From: Chrysemys picta bellii | Taxonomy: Eukaryota | Assembly (NCBI RefSeq): GCF_011386835.1 | Contig: NC_088791.1 | Coordinates: 206,274,001 to 206,338,000 of the forward strand | DNA: 64,000 nucleotides | Direction: 5' to 3' | Shown here: piece by piece, positions 7,951-23,027 of the stretch | Layout of the letters: every line of letters starts with the position of its first letter | Position numbering within the stretch: the stretch's first letter is position 1 | The notes under the pieces: model-generated | Databases searched by the model: none | The model's input: the letters and a program-made list of their open reading frames with translations, nothing else | Told to the model about the DNA's origin: nothing | Position numbers and translations under genes: made by a program

Positions 7951-9789
7951 ATATAATCACCTAAATAGACGGAATAGATCTCCAGCAATATAGCTGAGTT
8001 GAATTTAGAAAATAAATCTGTTGAAGATGCACAAGGAGGAAAGAAGCTAATTTTCTCTATGCACTGTGTTGGCTCTGCAGGGCTAACACAGTACAAATTT
8101 ATTTTAGTCCCTAAAATGAGCAGATCAGACTCTGAAGAAGGAACCAGGCTTTACTCAGAGCAATTGCCCAAGTTTACTCAGTAGGTATAAAAAGTAAACT
8201 CCCATGTGCTCCCTGTTTTTTTGTACTGGATCCAGTCCTGCAACCTTTGAAGTAAATGAAGGTTTTTGGCATCAGCTCCAGTGGAAGTAAGATTGGGCTC
8301 CATATGGTTATATCTTTGCTGCTACCATTGCCGTGATAAGAGCAAAGTGTAATGAGGGTGTGTATGAGGAGCAGAATAGGTGTCACTTAGTAGTAGTGGG
8401 CTGAGACTCAGTTGTGTGCTGCATAGACAGGGGAGGAGCAGCTTATCCTTAAACAGCTACAACTAAACCTCACCAAAAAACAATTTGCATTTCACAGTAG
8501 GAATATAAGGGCCCTAAATCCCGGTAGCAGTAGGGTATGGTGCATGAAGACAGGATCCCACATACACAGGCATGTCTCCTAGATTGTCACCATAGCCTCG
8601 CTTTCATTTTGGACTGCTTTGTGGGTTTTGTTAGGACAAAAGGCTTTTAACCAAGGAGGCCAGTACACATGAAACCATGTCAAAATGCTCCATATTCTGG
8701 TGGTGTGAGTGTCTCCCCCTGTCCCCCAGTTTATAATTTCACTCAAACTCTTCCCACCAACAGATCCTCAGGCTAGTTTTGGTATTTTTCCATCCATGAT
8801 GTGGATTAGGTTTAGAAATTACTATCCACAAGTAGGGTTTTCCTTGCTCACCATAATCAGCCCTAGCATCGTACAGAGAGCAGAATTGGCCTTTTTATGA
8901 AAATTATTCTTGTTCTTCAACTCTTGGTCTATTTGAAAGTTTGAATCACAAGAAATCCAGCAGAAACTCAGTAAAACTGTAAGAGGCCATTGAAAGAGAA
9001 ATGAAGGAGACTGTTGAATAGCCAGTGAGAATCATCCAGTTGAATATCCCTTTTTAGCATTCATAAGGAATAAAAGAACAAGGAACGTGATTTGTGTTTG
9101 TTTATAAAGGGCTGTCTTTAATTTACAGCGCTATGTAAACAATTTTTAATAATCATGCTAATCCAGGGCTGGGACTGTGGAAGGATTTTAGAATTGGAGA
9201 TTTCTAAACACAGGCAGATTGACACTTTAGCAGCTGTTAAGGGAACTGAGGAAGCTCGTAACAAGCTGGAGATTGGAATGACATGGATTGTGCTTTGTCC
9301 TGATTTGGTTTTAGCGAATCAAACTTTCTTAAAACTGAGTTGGAATCTACATGTATGTCTAGAATAAGCAGGCCAGATCTTCAGCTAATATAAATCAGTA
9401 TCAGTTGAAGTCAATGATGCTACAACAGTTTACCCTAGCTGGGGAGCTGATATCTTGAATTCAAAGGATTTTATTATACCCAGACAGGTCTTGAAGCATT
9501 CTAAAATAAAGGGATTACAAATAATTTAATTTAGAACTCTGTGACTAAACTGCAACTGAGTCTTCTTACTCTGAGTTATTTTTCTAATTGTTTTATTGAA
9601 TTCATGTATAAGGATTTACATTCCTTGCATGAACATTTGCTTTTAATTAACAAAGAATATATGTTTGCTGCAAGGAATACAATCCTGAACCTAATCGTTT
9701 ACAATGTTATCTCCTGTAAGCGTCTTTTGAGAGAATTCCTATTTGCATTGCCTTATTAAAAGTGTCTAGCATATAACAAGAGACAATAT

Positions 9790-15774: not shown

Positions 15775-16726
15775 GTGAACTGAAGAAAGAGACAGAGGGC
15801 AGATTCACAAAGGGATTTAGGCACCTAACTGCCACTTTGGGCACCTAAATCCAAAATTTAGGTGTCATTGGCATCACAAAACCACTGCTCAGCTGTCACT
15901 TAAAGTCCCTGGGCATCTAAGTTTCTGCCAATAAAGCCCCTGAAGTGCCTAAATTGACACTGCCCAACAGCTTGGTGCCTAAGCCCTACTGGGATTCGCA
16001 AATTAGGTGTTCCTCAGAGGCCACTCAAGACAATTTGCTGCCTTCCTCCTACACTCTTGAACACAGGTTCTCAACCTGGGCAGACTTAGTTGGGGGGCAT
16101 AGCAAGCCTTCTGATGGTTTGGTGGTTACGGTAGGCATTGGGAGGGAAGCACTAGGTTACAGTGCCACTCACTCAGGTTTGGCCCAGCTGTCCCTCCATC
16201 ATAACGGGGATGGCCATTGGAATTTGAGTGAGTGGTGTTGTAACCTCGAGCGTGAGATCGCAGTGCCACTCAGGATTTGTTTGTCTATTCCTGCTGCCCT
16301 AGGCAGAATCTGCCACCCAAGACCCCTGCCTAGTTTGCCTATAGCTAGCACAGCCCCTGTGTTCCCCACATACCCTGCAGTTTAGGCCCAATCCAGTACA
16401 CATGCTCTGAGAACATCTAAACCCACACAAAATGGCAGCAGGAGCTGCTGGTGTCCCTCCATAGCTTTTAGCTCAGTGGTTAGAGTATTCACCCAGGCTG
16501 CTGGTGTCCCTCCATAGCTTTTAGCTCAGTGGTTAGAGTATTCACCCAGGCTGTGGGGGTCAATTTTCACCTCTGCCTGATGTGGAAGGTGGGGAGGCTC
16601 AAGTTCAAATCCCTTCTCCACAAGAGTGCTCTAATCACTGGGCTACAGGGTGGTTTAGGGCTGGTTGCTCTCAGTCTCTCCTGTTGAAGCAGACATTGGG
16701 CTAGAGAGAGAGTTGGAATGACCCAA
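15775..16726. repeat. Turtle interspersed repeat with tRNA-like A/B-box pieces; host of the provirus, apparently continuing at 22352-22430
   Basis: TTAGGCACCTAA motifs, AGCTCAGTGGTTAGAG, GGCTCAAGTTCAAATCCC; right flank TCTATAGCCCAGCAATTAGGGAACTCACC is of the same type. Confidence 0.5.
16444..16553. repeat. Perfect 53-bp tandem duplication
   Basis: GCTGCTGGTGTCCCTCCATAGCTTTTAGCTCAGTGGTTAGAGTATTCACCCAG at 16444-16496 and 16497-16549. Confidence 0.95.
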
Positions 16727-17295
16727 TGTTAGGCTCTGATAGAGGCCTCTCTACGGGATAGGAGAGCAGGCAGATATCAGACACAGTGTTGGTATATAAT
16801 ACTCTAAATATTTTTATGGATTACAATATAAACCCCACTCACTCCACATTCACACTCCTTTCATACCACACCAGAATCTGAAGATCTGAAAGAATCCCGA
16901 TGGCTAGTCAAAATTCAGTCCAATCACAAGGCCTGGGGAGTCCCACGTTACACGCCTCTTCTTTTTCAGGACTCTGAGACAGTGTCTAACTCCAACTTCA
17001 GCTATAGCAAACAACCTTTTTTATAGACCAGCCCCTTGCATCATTAGCTCTTTGTCTAAGTCTTTCATCCATAATTCCAGAAGAGAGGTTCCGGGCAGGC
17101 CGCCATAATCCAAGACATTCCATTTCCTCTTATGGACATGACAAAGTTTGTTTTGCACAGACAATTCTTGACTGCTCATAACCTTAAATCCTTGCTTCAG
17201 CTGCCAGCATGCAACTCACATACTCATGTCAAGCATACAGCATTTATAGTAGGCCCAGATGGCCTATAGCGTATTCCAACATATACATCACAACA
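16727..17295 (-). repeat. 3' LTR (569 bp)
   Basis: TGTT...AACA termini; aligns with 21797-22351; TATA (minus) at ~17019-17025; polyA signal reads CATAAA (16813-16818). Confidence 0.96.
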
Positions 17296-17306
17296 GTCCC
17301 CCTTTT
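17296..17306 (-). promoter_or_regulatory. Polypurine tract AAAAGGGGG plus AC dinucleotide before U3
   Basis: Minus strand reads AAAAGGGGG-AC-TGTTG at the 3' LTR boundary. Confidence 0.88.
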
Positions 17307-17342
17307 GATACATGATTAATAACATTGATTATTGTATGACTT

Positions 17343-20049
17343 TTATAATTTTGCAAGCAGCTCAGCTTTATATAGTTCTCATTCCAAAACTGCTTGTCAT
17401 TTTCTTATTTGACAGTACAAACACAGCATGACAAACATTAATAGAATCATTGACATGAACAATATAACAATAGGATACAATGCCTCATTCAGGAGGGCTG
17501 TAGCACTGGGACACCATTCCTTAGAAACATTGTACCAATGGTGGACTGTCAATTCTTCCCCTTCTTTTCCTAATTTTAATATTTGACCATTATGCAACAA
17601 GATACTTATCTTTCCCAGCTAGGCAGATTTAGATACATCCTTTGCATATTGTTTTATTTTTTTTCACTTTTATCAACCAATTCCTCCCATTGTTCCCAAG
17701 GTACCCCTAAGTCAAAGGACCAGTCCCCATCTTTTGGTTCCCAAATGATTTCCTTTTTTAAGAATAAGGGTCCCCGATAAACAATTCCTTCAATAATAAC
17801 CTCTGTTACATTACATTTGCATGACTCGATTGGACCTTTTTCTGTCATATCTCCCCAAAATATATATTTTTCAGTGGTCACAACACAAATGCACCCATTG
17901 CCTAAATCAAACACTCTTGTGCCATTGGGGCTAAATACTGTATTATACAATGTCCACTTGAATTATTTGGAGGACATACCTCTAAAGAACAAGTTAGCTC
18001 TGGGCACATCCATTCATTTTGCCTGCACGCCTCACAACGTTTTACCAATTCCACTAATTTATAGCCCCCCTCTTCCTGAATCAAATGTCTTCCCCTTATT
18101 TCTATTTGCCATAATTCTCTGTTCATAATCTTTGGCAGCATCCCGGCCATTGCCGCTCTTTTCTTTTTTCCAGTGTTATCCTGCCCTTCCAATCCCCTTT
18201 TAGAGTGGTCTGATTCCAATTAAACCCAAGGTGTTTCTTCCATCCTATAATTCGTTGTCTCTATATATGGGAGTCTTTGAACAACTCAAAGGGTCATTGC
18301 CCATTACTCAGTATATTGACTATCCTCTCTATATACCGTATCCCATAAGCTTGAATCTGTACACATAGTATTGCTAATGCAGTCGTGTTATTAATTTCTG
18401 ACATACTCAATAAATTAGCATTTAAAGATGCTTCCAAGGCTTGTATTTGTTTTACTTGGACCACTACATTCCTTATTCCTGGCGCTGATAATGTGCCAAC
18501 ATTTTGTATTACATGCGTATGTATGGCTCCCAAAATCTCACCCAACGTTGACATTTTCTTTTGTAATGTCTCAATAACAAATGAACTCAACACCCCAACC
18601 CCAGCGCCAATGCCACCCACAATATACTCTCTGATACCTCTTTTACTTCTTTTAGCTCCATCTCCCCATTGTTGTTGCCACGTTAGTAATAGAGGCAAGG
18701 CATATGGCATACACTCTGAATGTTGTGCACTCACATCTAATTGTGACCCCTCCAGCCAGATCGTTTGGTGCACAATAGTTGGGGCTTCAATTACTTCCCC
18801 CTTCATCTGCCATAATTCTTGGTGCTGTTTTATTTACTGGTATTTGATTAAGAAACATGAAATACCTACCATATCACCAGGGCCCTCCCTAGCTATTCTG
18901 GGGCCCTACGCAACCCCCCCAAGGGTGTGTGTGTGGGGGGGGGCAGGCCTCTGCAGAGGAGGAAGCGGGGGGGCTGGCCCCAGGCCTCTGCGGGAGAGGA
19001 GCAGGCCCCAGGTCTCTGTGGGAGGCTGGCCCCAGGCCTCCGCAGGGGTTGGGGCAAGGAGCAGGCCCCAGGCCTCCATGGTGGGGCTGGCTTGGTCGGC
19101 AGGGGGGAACCACCCCCCCAGCACTCACCAGTGGCATGGCTGGGGCCGGGTCGCTGCACTCCTGCTGCTGGTGAGTGCAGCCCCGGCCCTGCTGCAGAGC
19201 TCAGGGGAGTGAGGGTGGGGCTGGGCAGGGGTAGGAAGAGGCAGGACTGGGGCAGGGTGGGGGCGGAGCAGGGGCAGGAGCCCTGGGGAAGAGCCGTAGT
19301 AGGGGCTAGAGCAGCTACGTACTTTGAGTAGGGAATGACGGCCCTGCATATCCCCAAAAGTATATTCCCCTATTGATTTTCCTGAAACAGCTTAATTTCA
19401 CCATTATGGAATTTACCATAGCGTCATACCTCCACACTTCGAAAGCCGCTGACTCATTCCATCCCACATGGACATTAGCCAATTCTTTTTCATAAATCAC
19501 ATCCAGGGTAGTTACATTAAATCCCAAATTCCAAAAAGTGCAATTCAGGATGCTTATATTTGGGTTATTTTCATTATAACTAAATTTAAATGTCAACCAG
19601 TGCTCCCCTTTTATAATATAAAAATACCTCCATTGCTTCTCCAAGTCCTCTGGTTTTAAATATTCCCATATTAAATTCTTACCATTTTCCCACCATATTT
19701 CAAATTTTACCTCAAAGGGTTTCCACTCACATCTGTCTTTGTTTGGTCCCATTTTCTCCATTGTGTCCCATTGATAGTCGAACGTATTATTCCCTTTAAT
19801 CCATACCTCCATTTTAGAGGTGCTCCCATGTGTATATCCTTGTACCCCTAAACTTTCCCAGATACTTACAAAACATAAAAAACAGAAACCATATCCCCAC
19901 CCTTCAGGGTGCCATTGACTTTCCCATTTTTCCCGAATCATTGCTGACAATGTTAGAACTTTTACTTTAAAATCAATTTTCATTCTCTGCAAACTTTCCG
20001 CTTTTCTGGTTCCACTTTTGCACACCTCTTGTGTTGAGGTCATGGTCAT
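17343..20049 (-). pseudogene. env: Envelope glycoprotein (class I fusion), disrupted by MITE, frameshifts and stops
   Basis: Hydrophobic signal GYGFCFLCFVSIW; sequons NNT, NIS, NCT, NVT, NES, NKT; RSKR|GIREYIVGGIGAGVGVLSSF; heptad-like region; Cys-rich CPELTCSLEVC, GCICV, SCKC; HHWYNVSKEWCPSATALLN then TM anchor YPIVILFMSMILLMFVMLCLYC. Confidence 0.92.
18878..19346. mobile_element. hAT-type MITE inserted in env
   Basis: CAGGGCC/GGCCCTG termini; 8-bp TSD CATATCAC (18870-18877) vs CATATCCC (19347-19354); removing it restores the frame ...YFWGY|GRYFMFLNQ. Confidence 0.92.
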
Positions 20050-20311
20050 TATTCCATAAGAATAATGTCCAGTGCCTCTGACTCTACTACCCCAAGCACT
20101 TTTGTTAAGCCTTTGCTAAACTCTTCTGTCTTCACTTGAGCTCTGGTATTCTTCTTCCTAAAATGTAAATGACACAAAACAATCTTTCCACCAGACAAAT
20201 AAAGCAAAGCAAAGCGAATATAAGCAGCAAACCAATTGCAAAAGTTGTTGCACCATATCCACACTCCCAATCCAGGATCCGTTTGGGATATCCTCCAGTG
20301 CAGTTGGACAT
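20049..20311 (-). CDS. Putative accessory small single-pass membrane protein (59 aa as is; ~87 aa if one frameshift is repaired)
   Basis: Starts 13 nt after a TTTTGGTTTGTTTTACAG acceptor; MSNCTGGYPKRILDWECGYG-ATTFAIGLLLIFALLCFICLV; second frame RKKNTRAQ...DIILME* ends in TAATG overlapping the env ATG. Confidence 0.5.
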
Positions 20312-20324
20312 TCCACTTTTATTT

Positions 20325-20343
20325 CTGTAAAACAAACCAAAAG
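20325..20343 (-). promoter_or_regulatory. Candidate splice acceptor just after the pol stop
   Basis: Pyrimidine-rich tract + ACAG (AG at 20326-20325), ~25 nt after pol stop TAG at 20351-20349. Confidence 0.6.
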
Positions 20344-20348
20344 GTTAT

Positions 20349-21776
20349 CTAATCTTTGGGCCATACCTTTAATTGTGATGTGTGTACTCATTTCCCCTTT
20401 TTTTTCTTTGTTAATTTGCACTACAGTGAGGGAAATTTTATTCATAATTGAAAATGGTCCAACACATTTTGATTCTAAGACATGATCTTTTGGTGTCAGC
20501 CTCAGATACATCCCCTATCCCCTATGTTCCATAATTTCGTATCTTGGGTGGCCTGTGAGTCCCTATATTCTCTTGCTTTCTCAGTTGCATCTGTTAATCT
20601 AAATTCCATTTTCTTAAGTTCAGTCAGTAATTCTTTAACCCATTGAGTAACCGATACTTCCTCTACATCCCCTTTTCCTTGGTACAGTAGAGGGCCCCAC
20701 AGTCTCATAGGCCTTCCAAAGAGAATTTGGTATGGCTGGTACCCTGTACTTCACCGATCACTACTTTGAATTGCTGCCAACATCAATGGTAATTTCTCTG
20801 CTCAATCTTTACCTGTTTCCTGTACCACCTTTCATAGAGCCTTCTTAATAGTTTGATTCATTTTCTCTACTGATCCTGATGATTGAGGACGGTAAGGAAT
20901 GCGTAACTGCTGCTTTAGTCCTAAAACTTTCAATAAGCTTTTCACTACTTCCCCCACAAAATGCGGTCCATTTTCCAAATCAATTGGTCTCAGAGTTCCA
21001 TACCTGCTAAAAACAACTTCCCATAGTTTCTTAGCGGTTGTCTCTGCAGTATGGTTCTGGATAGGAATCGCCTTCACCCATCCAGAAAAAGAATCCTCCA
21101 CCACCAGCAAATACTGATTTCCTCTGGAAGTTTTTGGCAACTTATCAATATAGTCCATTTGTATCCTACTCCACGGCCCTACAATTCTCTGATGTAACAA
21201 TGGCCCTGCACTAGGTGTTCTATTGCTGTCTGCCATGCATTTTATACAATTTTTAACAAATCTTTCTACATCTTCCTGTACTCTAGGTCAAATTCCAATT
21301 TGTTTTACCTTAAAAAGCATATTCTCTATTCCTTGATGTGCCATGGAGTGGCAGACATTAATAATTTCTTCCCTTTGGGTTTTTTCAGGTACCCACTTTA
21401 CCTCTCCTGTCTTTTTGTTCACTGCATATCCCCCTGTACCCTCCAGTTTCCCCATTTTTCTTCTGGCTTAATCTCCTGCACTATAGCCTGAGCTCTAGTA
21501 ACCACCGCAATTCCCAAAAGCTCTTTTGCTGCTTCCACCCTGGCCAAGCTATCAGCATTATCATTCCAGAATTTCTCGCTTTTGATGGCCTTTATGTTGT
21601 ACCTTCAGTTTCACTGGATTCCTCTTTAACCAATTATAAATTCATTTCCAGTCCTTCTTTTGGACCACACTTTTCCCCTCAGCTGTTTCCCAATTATTTC
21701 TTTTCCAAGTCCCAATCCAATAAAACAATCCTTGTACTACAAAATCTGAATCTATATAAACGTTCAGGCAATCCAC
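20349..21776 (-). pseudogene. pol: pol remnant: RNase H C-half + integrase
   Basis: RH: NVYIDSDFVVQG..W..NNWETAEGK..KGHQ..FWNDNADSLAR; linker AVVTRAQ; HHCC CHSMAHQG..KNCIKC; core QMDYID..VVEDSFSG..DLENGPHF..PYRPQSSGSVEKMNQTIK; STGYQPYQILFGR; GPF; ends K(W)VHTSQLKVWPKD*. About 11 stops/frameshifts by hand. Confidence 0.96.
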
Positions 21777-21794
21777 TGCCCACATTCTCCACCA
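21777..21794 (-). promoter_or_regulatory. Primer binding site, tRNA-Ala(AGC)
   Basis: TGGTGGAGAATGTGGGCA, 2 nt (TT) from the LTR end; 17/18 complementary to the vertebrate tRNA-Ala-AGC 3' end TGCCCGCATTCTCCACCA; mismatch at a CpG. Confidence 0.85.
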
Positions 21795-21796
21795 AA

Positions 21797-22351
21797 TGTT
21801 AGGCTCTGATAGAGGCCTCCCTACAGGATGGGGGAGCAGGCAGATACCAGACACAGTGATATAAAATACTCTAAATATTTTTATTGATTACAGGATAAAC
21901 CCCACTCACTCCACATTCACACTCCTTTCATACTACACCAGAATCTGAAGATCTGAAGGAAATCCCAATGGCCAGTCGAAATTCAGTCTGATCACAAGGC
22001 CTGGGGAGCCCCATGTTACACGCCTCTTCTTTTTCAGGACTCTGGGTCGGTGTCTGACTCTAACCTTTTTTATACACCAGACTATTGCGTCATTAGCTCT
22101 TTGTCTGTTTACTAAGCCTTTCATCCATAATTCCAGAAGAGCAGTTCCAGGCAGGCCGCCATAATCCAAGACATTCCATTTCCTCTTATGGGCATGATAA
22201 AGTTTGTTTTGCACAGACAATGCTTGAGCAGTTATAACCTTAAATCCTTGCTTCAGCTGCCAGCACGCTACTCACATACTGATATCAAGCATATAGCATT
22301 TATAATAGGCCCATATGGCCTATAGCGTATTGCAACATATACATTACAACA
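21797..22351 (-). repeat. 5' LTR (555 bp)
   Basis: TGTT...AACA termini; AATAAA (minus) 21880-21885; TATAAAA (minus) ~22068-22074; adjacent PBS. Confidence 0.96.
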
Positions 22352-22360
22352 TCTATAGCC

Positions 22361-22430
22361 CAGCAATTAGGGAACTCACCTGGGAGGTGTGTGACCAGCA
22401 ATTAAGGAACTCACCTGGGAGGTGTGTGAC
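22361..22430. repeat. 35-bp tandem duplication
   Basis: CAGCAATTA(G/A)GGAACTCACCTGGGAGGTGTGTGAC x2, one mismatch. Confidence 0.95.
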
Positions 22431-22503
22431 TGTGTTGCAGTTCCCCTTTTTCCTATGAATATTTATTTATATATAGTGGAACAGCTTCAATGGGAGAGGG
22501 ACC

Positions 22504-23027
22504 TGTTGCCAGCCCAAAAGGGCCCGAGGAGGCAAACAGCAGAGTTCGTTGCACGGTTTGCTTCGCACTAATAGAGACACCAGGTGTGGAGAAGCAAAAC
22601 AACTTTATTCAAGAGCTCTGAATAGGCACTAGGAGACCAACATGTCTCAAATCAAGCGCAGCAAATACAAGCAAGTTTTCCCTTTTATATTCCAAGCAGT
22701 TTCTGTGCAGGCTTTGTCTGTTACTTTTCCTCCTACCCCTCCTTCCCTTCCCTCCTCAAGCAGTTGCAGTTAGGAAAATTCCCATCCGTCTGCTTATCTT
22801 TGACCTTGTTAGTATGAACGAAACAGCAGCTATCTGCTAGAAAAGCTGACCATTACATTACTGCTTTAGCCTGCTTCAGCATGTAAGCAGTTAGCATAGA
22901 TGTAGGTGAAAGTTCACAAGATGGAGTCACTGTGGCTCACTTAGACCCAGAGCAAAGGAGTTTCATCGGCACTTATGGCCTTCCACTCCCCTGAGTTACT
23001 TGGTAGCTATGCCTAGTGACACCAACA
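22504..23027 (-). mobile_element. Solo LTR of a second family
   Basis: TGTTG...CAACA termini; perfect 4-bp TSD GACC (22500-22503, 23028-23031); minus-strand TATAAAA ~22683-22689 and AATAAA 22604-22609. Confidence 0.88.

Follow-up and report, generated by a model that had tools for sequence, protein, structure and literature searches.

Among the endogenous retroviruses (ERVs) that sit outside the named classes, the alligator family CrocERV37 (also ERV-3_AMi, of class ‘Unknown’) clusters with Ovex1 and SpeV in a group that is itself unclassified (Chong et al. 2014, PMC4299795), and Ovex1-related ERVs have been published for birds, tuatara and crocodilians. Turtles are reported to be undergoing ongoing ERV invasions (PMC10435555), and also hold remnants of lokiretroviruses, published as highly degraded (PMC7947760), a lineage that has been argued to be separated from canonical retroviruses by its F-like envelope protein (Env; PMC9040795). 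Here we describe a provirus at positions 16727 to 22351 of a 64,000-nucleotide stretch of the Chrysemys picta bellii genome (the ‘window’; NC_088791.1, 206,274,001 to 206,338,000), which on the minus strand shows, in retroviral order, a 5' long terminal repeat (LTR), a tRNA-Ala primer-binding site (PBS), RNase H-integrase, a 59-codon open reading frame (ORF), env, a polypurine tract (PPT) and a 3' LTR. This order, proposed earlier in a sequence-only reading of the locus, is borne out by the LTR, PBS, Pfam and ORF coordinates (Table 1). We are fairly confident that the element derives from a canonical retrovirus of the unclassified Ovex1/SpeV/CrocERV37 group, which belongs to neither class I nor class II, that CrocERV37 is, by eye, the most alike of the described families, and that the element came about much as set out below.

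The placement is carried by trees of reverse transcriptase (RT) and integrase. In the more careful RT tree (IQ-TREE; 43 of 129 rows kept, with no class II rows), four colinear copies of the family form a clade (support 100/100), which is nested, at 96/96, among three partners: a co-resident family, a caecilian ERV and a clade of bird ERVs. The element's own integrase joins these same partners (100/99) in a tree run without two ERV-L-type integrases that were too short. A larger group of 18 RT rows also takes in Ovex1-type and ERV-L-type rows (97/94), the latter label being presumed from motifs, and FastTree recovers a clade of the family and Ovex1 (0.993). The three lokiretrovirus RT rows form a clade of their own (100/100), outside the canonical retroviruses (97/90), and approximately unbiased (AU) tests reject both a clade of the family with lokiretrovirus RT (p=3.4e-6) and a clade of the element's integrase with that of lokiretroviruses (p=1.8e-6). 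Reference labels follow published sequence, with snakehead retrovirus (SnRV) and the three lokiretrovirus RTs taken from Dataset S2 of PMC7947760, and one eel sequence, from the same cluster as one of those RTs, standing for lokiretrovirus integrase; Ovex1-type rows were labelled by three motifs given in PMC2717909, and WEHV1 by its source name. The RT segments of L033, L078 and L082, partly out of frame, were kept out of the careful tree and group with the family in FastTree (1.0), L033 also grouping with this element in the integrase tree, which ties an RT-bearing copy to the element. An RT fragment at L036 was dropped: it is part of a different element, in the opposite orientation, and took another position in FastTree.

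Two further assignments can be set aside. ERV4 is defined by a target-site duplication (TSD) of 5 bp and the lack of a GPY/F-type motif (PMC4299795); the family's TSD of 4 bp and the GPF motif present in the integrase tail speak against it, and the single foamy-like RT row lies outside the family's group on a long branch. The env stop codon is 87 nt from the PPT, a gap so short that a foamy-type accessory gene has no room after env; this agrees with the earlier remark that no accessory genes lie between env and the 3' LTR, and, with the RT tree, speaks against Spumaretrovirinae. Among birds, a Pol clade comprising P0021, P0109 and relatives has a long branch and stands close to the family, though outside it. 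The falcon member of this clade falls into the same 90% cluster as isoforms of SCARA3; the clade may be a second ERV locus that was domesticated, apart from Ovex1, or else a gene-model fusion.

One co-resident family has an intact Env of 643 aa, to which the pieces of env in this element are homologous (E 8e-24). The distance from cleavage site to transmembrane (TM) helix is about 381 aa in that relative and 386 codons in this element. Gamma-type TM subunits are far shorter than these ~381-386 aa, and no CX6CC motif was found in Env. Two models of the intact relative's Env are poor overall (predicted local distance difference test, pLDDT, 49 and 54), with one confident beta domain in the first (residues 443-498, pLDDT 81-93; homologous segment in this element, 17657-17962). 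In the best rows, this domain overlays residues 401-463 of respiratory syncytial virus (RSV) F and 369-431 of human metapneumovirus (hMPV) F at 1.5-2.5 Å over 51-55 residues (Z 5.1-5.9), and its counterpart, domain II of pneumovirus F, sits at a similar distance from the cleavage site. In a Foldseek search with the first model, RSV F appears in the first 16 rows shown (best E 0.024, no fold match being significant). The top cluster in Atlas is an unnamed chordate family of 874 aa (0.93), followed by Fusion glycoprotein F0 (0.88), at a recognition score for the intact Env of 1809 (under the guide value of 2300), with no usable match for the element's surface (SU) segment. In a library of viral models, the best hit is the glycoprotein of a chu-like virus (E 6e-4), and F0 proteins take ranks 3, 4 and 7. 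Taken together, the modelled domain, the Atlas result and the Foldseek ranking lend moderate support to the F-like Env first proposed from sequence, and we consider that Env is probably a class Ib (F-like) fusogen.

Other searches with Env came back empty. It matches no Pfam family (Baculo_F included, with nothing above cut-off), searches of the PDB by sequence and by profile gave nothing significant (the second profile's best hit being a coronavirus spike heptad, E 1.1), a homolog search with the intact relative's Env retained 0 of 4104 candidates, its profile scored no better than shuffles against a Walleye dermal sarcoma virus (WDSV)-type Env, and wide structural searches were filled by unrelated coiled coils. 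The viral and metagenome collections yielded no locus of a lokiretrovirus, of Ovex1 or of a fish foamy virus. The second Env alignment leaves out 9 of 77 candidate fragments (eight of which looked out of frame or weak) and adds three. We also observe that the Env N-terminus (about 19905-20033) is longer in this element and its closest relative, L072, than in the older subfamily.

The ORF between pol and env encodes one hydrophobic stretch (mean hydropathy 2.97 over 19 residues) followed by a basic tail, a layout, and no more than a layout, that resembles HIV-1 Vpu; Pfam has no match for it. Its ATG column is intact in 13 of 15 copies, and stops occupy 5 of 867 codons in frame; the two other frames have stops at 63 of 899 and at 12 of 882 codons. 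Differences shared between subfamilies comprise 16 silent and 17 replacing changes, for an expected silent share of 29% (p 0.015; other frames neutral), a signal that weakens to p=0.057 if limited to sites where the closest relative agrees with the element; two rows of the alignment look misaligned. Upstream of the ORF by 11-14 nt, most rows carry a pyrimidine tract and AG, and for this putative first acceptor the AG is kept in 12 of 16 rows, with 13 of 17 positions pyrimidine, a level attained by 12 of 345 interior AG sites. The ATG, stop-codon and splice-acceptor data support the earlier suggestion of an extra gene at this position, and we think it likely that the ORF represents a real accessory gene.

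Of the 18 bases of the PBS, 17 match the 3' end of tRNA-Ala(AGC) from the same genome, and the sequence directly after the PBS already encodes mid-RNase H; because the PBS is fused onto RNase H in this way, leader, gag, pro and RT are all absent, a loss that the sequence-only reading did not mention, any more than it did the broken target-site duplication and the insertion in env. Among 40 scored loci of 77 candidates, this locus alone spans the junction on both sides, which points to a single event and not to a mobilised subfamily; an amplified non-autonomous subfamily was looked for in the same set and none was found. The RNase H landing site, as read in the closest relative, is a better match to the PBS 3' end than are 98.6-98.8% of interior sites. 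A sister copy, L071 (G000:C7, next to the LTR at about 8550-8640), has some 22 further tRNA-Ala-complementary bases after its PBS and then a second PBS-like site, and is a case of tRNA read-through fixed in a provirus. L075, separately, carries a short inverted piece of LTR after its PBS. Aberrant second-strand transfer of a comparable kind has been described for HIV-1 proviruses (PMC12657518).

We propose the following model for the history of the element. The parent virus would have primed from tRNA-Ala and generated a 4-bp duplication on integration, and would have carried gag-pro-pol, a small accessory ORF with a single membrane helix, and a long Env that was probably of F type (class Ib). 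The accessory ORF and env would probably have been expressed by way of splicing. During reverse transcription, plus-strand strong-stop DNA ending in a copy of the PBS may have landed on the PBS-like site inside RNase H, a misdirected transfer that would have removed leader, gag, pro and RT, such that the copy was probably defective on arrival. Integration would then have been followed by neutral decay and, later, by insertion of a DNA transposon into env.

The LTR pair differs by 50 substitutions over 547 aligned sites (35 of them transitions; Kimura two-parameter, K2P, distance 0.099; 4 gaps), in keeping with the divergence of ~9% and the old insertion first estimated for the locus. At the slower substitution rates of turtles, the insertion would date to 50-100 million years (My) ago. 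The rate implied by Table S1 of PMC7947760 gives an age of about 22 My. The duplicated target site is no longer intact (CCAA on the left, TCTA on the right, 2 of 4 bases agreeing); at 16 solo-LTR loci of the family, read by eye, a 4-bp duplication is exact in 6 and has a single mismatch in 6.

How, then, do the alternatives fare? The sequence-only reading had taken the element for a lokiretrovirus, a placement that we now regard as extremely improbable. That impression arose because integrase BLAST favours the eel lokiretrovirus (168 bits) over SnRV (72 bits), yet the integrase tree does not join them, and both phylogenies and their AU tests place the element among canonical retroviruses and away from lokiretroviruses. 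Degraded lokiretrovirus remnants are indeed on record from turtles, as noted above; however, of 7 family fragments, 4 have PQG and 0 have PFG as their RT motif, as against PFG in 24 of 24 lokiretrovirus rows (PQG being found in all 15 canonical rows of Dataset S2 of PMC7947760 that were compared), and no PF00523 match was obtained in the Env fragments, the intact relative or the genome. In a stricter first look, a lokiretrovirus Pol query returned nothing above 38% identity in this genome. The tether and new RNase H, listed as a lokiretrovirus trait, are seen in the intact relative L045 (the tether being deleted in this element), but are not diagnostic, since they are common to all retroviruses; nor can the probable F-like Env place the element there, because foamy Env is F-like too (PMC11468914), and as a lokiretrovirus marker that part of the earlier argument does not stand.

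A chimera, in which pol of the Ovex1 group was joined to an env captured from a lokiretrovirus-, foamy- or Mononegavirales-type donor, seems to us quite unlikely, although Env lacks any Pfam match and is not detectably related to that of SnRV, and separate origins have been suggested for Ovex1 ORF3 and Gag-Pol (PMC2717909). Several divergent pol lineages of this genome, L050 and L090 on the Ovex1 side among them, come with a homologous Env, so any capture would have to be older than the whole group; moreover, the nearest Atlas cluster has the length of zebra finch Ovex1 ORF3, 874 aa, a coincidence of length and not an alignment. Rather less unlikely, though still improbable, is that the element is a recombinant of two proviruses, or owes its deletion to a chromosomal event long after integration: the target-site duplication is not intact in this 5-kb element, and its two LTRs are sisters with weak support (0.75). 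Against this, the LTRs differ by 9.1% from one another and by at least 10.5% from each of 29 other rows, and the junction falls exactly at the 18th base of the PBS, with errors at the PBS end seen in other copies too.

Several observations pull the other way and temper the account of a misdirected transfer in a canonical, Ovex1-group provirus. The element has no RT, so that its RT placement runs through relatives 70-77% identical in DNA; the lokiretrovirus references comprise three RTs and one integrase; how the Ovex1, ERV-L and SnRV groups relate to one another is weakly resolved and differs between FastTree and IQ-TREE; and the comparison with CrocERV37 was made by eye, outside the trees. 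For Env, unrelated small beta sandwiches also attain Z 4.5-5.0, a structural search with the second model gave no significant match, PF00523 was matched by 0 of 68 fragments and not by the intact relative in hmmscan (with none above cut-off in the genome search), and hhalign scores the Env profile against SnRV Env at 19.7, below the best of 30 shuffles (21.7). The resemblance of the landing site to the PBS is modest, and a later chromosomal deletion at microhomology would look similar; likewise, the 2 of 4 match at the target site leaves room for a rearrangement of the flank or for recombination between copies.

The locus is a dead provirus, one of dozens of copies, with no evident present function. 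The genome holds 53 matches to the family's LTR and 22 other matches to the small ORF; internal copies are degraded, with 83-89% identity in a closer subfamily, and RT is retained in several that are colinear. Younger related families with open frames are co-resident, and a protein 84% identical to the RT of one of them clusters with sea-turtle proteins, in keeping with a turtle host. Four young related proviruses (L044, L045, L047 and L050) have LTRs 99.9-100% identical, long open frames and features of the lineage in common; L044 shares the PBS type, PPT and 4-bp TSD, and has its protease fused in frame to RNase H-integrase without RT.

Within env lies a later insertion of 469 bp, which we take to be of hAT type, ending in short inverted repeats and flanked by a target duplication of 8 bp that matches at 7 positions; it is not present in relatives and is a dispersed repeat, all 40 of the 40 copies scored among 819 candidates matching. 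The element's stretch is present in 20 of 24 listed sequencing runs, which carry eight organism labels and one metagenome label, and RNA-type runs contain at most 0.28 of its words. In the listed contigs of four runs, the PBS-RNase H junction is bridged in 3, the left flank in 2 and the right end of the insertion in 2. As the junction, the flank and the env insertion are bridged in contigs from other organisms, all three events are older than the split of those organisms.

Table 1. Coordinates of the provirus and its parts within the window
Feature	Position	Strand	Remarks
5' LTR	21797..22351	minus	555 bp, TG...CA ends; sister of 3' LTR in LTR tree
PBS	21777..21794	minus	tRNA-Ala(AGC); its 3' end is the deletion junction
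RNase H C-terminal part and linker	21408..21776	minus	frameshifted, PBS-fused; Pfam PF00075 E 3.8e-7; aligned to fuller copies
Integrase (zinc finger, core, GPF-type C-terminal domain)	20349..21407	minus	Pfam rve E 1.1e-10; third-position bias; integrase tree
Putative splice acceptor 1	20325..20345	minus	pyrimidine tract and AG, 14 nt 5' of small-ORF ATG
Putative splice acceptor 2, for env	20158..20178	minus	AG kept in 14/16 rows
Small ORF	20132..20311	minus	59 aa; strongly hydrophobic helix, then basic tail
env	17397..20049	minus	broken by stops, frameshifts and one insertion
env leader and SU	frame open 19318-20115	minus	
Later insertion within env (presumably hAT-type)	18878..19346		469 bp
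env RSKR cleavage site	ends at 18639	minus	
env fusion peptide and heptad repeat	18297-18638	minus	
env Cys-rich beta domains	17657-18219	minus	
env TM helix	from about 17480	minus	
PPT and 2-nt spacer	17296..17307	minus	immediately 5' of 3' LTR
3' LTR	16727..17295	minus	569 bp, TG...CA ends

The integrase region has in-frame stops, a single frameshift near 20514 and an altered catalytic triad. Rfam gave no match across the 64-kb window. Beyond the element, a perfect tandem duplication of 53 bp (window 16444-16549) is absent from the contigs of all 4 of the other runs compared and is either recent or a feature of the assembly, and a 35-bp tandem duplication (22360-22429) adjoins the end of the 5' LTR, on the side where the target-site duplication fails. 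A solo LTR of a different, younger, high-copy family (22503-23027; best copies 92-98% identical) lies 150 bp from the 5' LTR.

Taking the lineage as a whole, we lean slightly towards the view that the Ovex1/CrocERV37 group carries an Env of class Ib (RSV-F/foamy type), and that the turtle family adds to this a Vpu-like small membrane protein on a spliced RNA of its own. If so, F-type Env would span lokiretroviruses, foamy viruses and a basal orthoretrovirus-like branch, and would be favoured as the ancestral retroviral envelope; gamma- and beta-type Env would then be later replacements, against the published preference for independent gains of env in lokiretroviruses and canonical retroviruses, and ORF3 of bird Ovex1, so far unexplained, would gain a fold. 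Foamy Env structures already weaken the separation of lokiretroviruses from canonical retroviruses by F-like Env, and such an Env in a third, reptile-bird-amphibian branch would allow structures to test where retroviral env came from. The small membrane ORF, which is conserved, is probably an accessory gene, and one that we did not find described for the Ovex1/CrocERV37 group; the precise deletion at the PBS end, along with tRNA read-through in the sister copy, would be a fossil record of the plus-strand-transfer errors known from HIV-1 proviruses. In the open literature (Repbase and subscription journals lying outside this coverage), neither this turtle family nor its small ORF was found described, and no F-like Env was found reported for the Ovex1 group; supplements of the ERV surveys PMC6001957, PMC10435555 and PMC12287698 may hold such loci. 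The value of the element is thus as a ‘pointer’ to a little-studied lineage of reptiles and birds, and as a variant worth following up at the level of that lineage.

Of the described systems, CrocERV37 (PMC4299795) is closest, with the same tRNA-Ala-type PBS and 4-bp TSD, an env reported as present, and, in a comparison by eye, a close match in stretches of RT, RNase H, linker and integrase tail (in the tail, at 26 of 39 residues). It differs in its host; in the accessible account we found neither a small ORF nor an F-like Env described, and the present copy lacks gag-pro-RT. Bird Ovex1 (Carre-Eusebe et al. 2009, PMC2717909) falls in the same broad RT group, and has a GP-type integrase tail. 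Its third ORF is long and provides a TM anchor and a cleavage site, but neither CWLC nor CX6CC; Ovex1 is, however, a single-copy domesticated locus without LTRs or obvious accessory ORFs, and is not the nearest branch in our trees. SnRV (PMC12193657), of a neighbouring unclassified lineage, expresses small accessory ORFs from spliced RNAs and has a long TM ectodomain (352 aa), but unlike the turtle family has a 3' ORF, and it shares 27% identity in integrase and no Env similarity above shuffles.

Lokiretroviruses (Wang and Han, PMC7947760) are alike in the layout of tether and RNase H, as judged from fuller relatives, and in a probably F-type Env, and differ in RT and integrase phylogeny, in the PFG motif of RT and in a detectable similarity to PF00523. 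Neither foamy virus Env nor pneumovirus F matches at the level of sequence, and the element has neither a spumaviral pol nor accessory genes after env. With the class Ib fusogens as a structural class, foamy Env and pneumovirus F (Fernandez et al. 2024, PMC11468914), the family nevertheless shares a cleavage site, fusion peptide, long helix, beta domains, second helix and TM segment in the same order and spacing, and an alike distance, about 380-386 aa, from cleavage site to TM segment.

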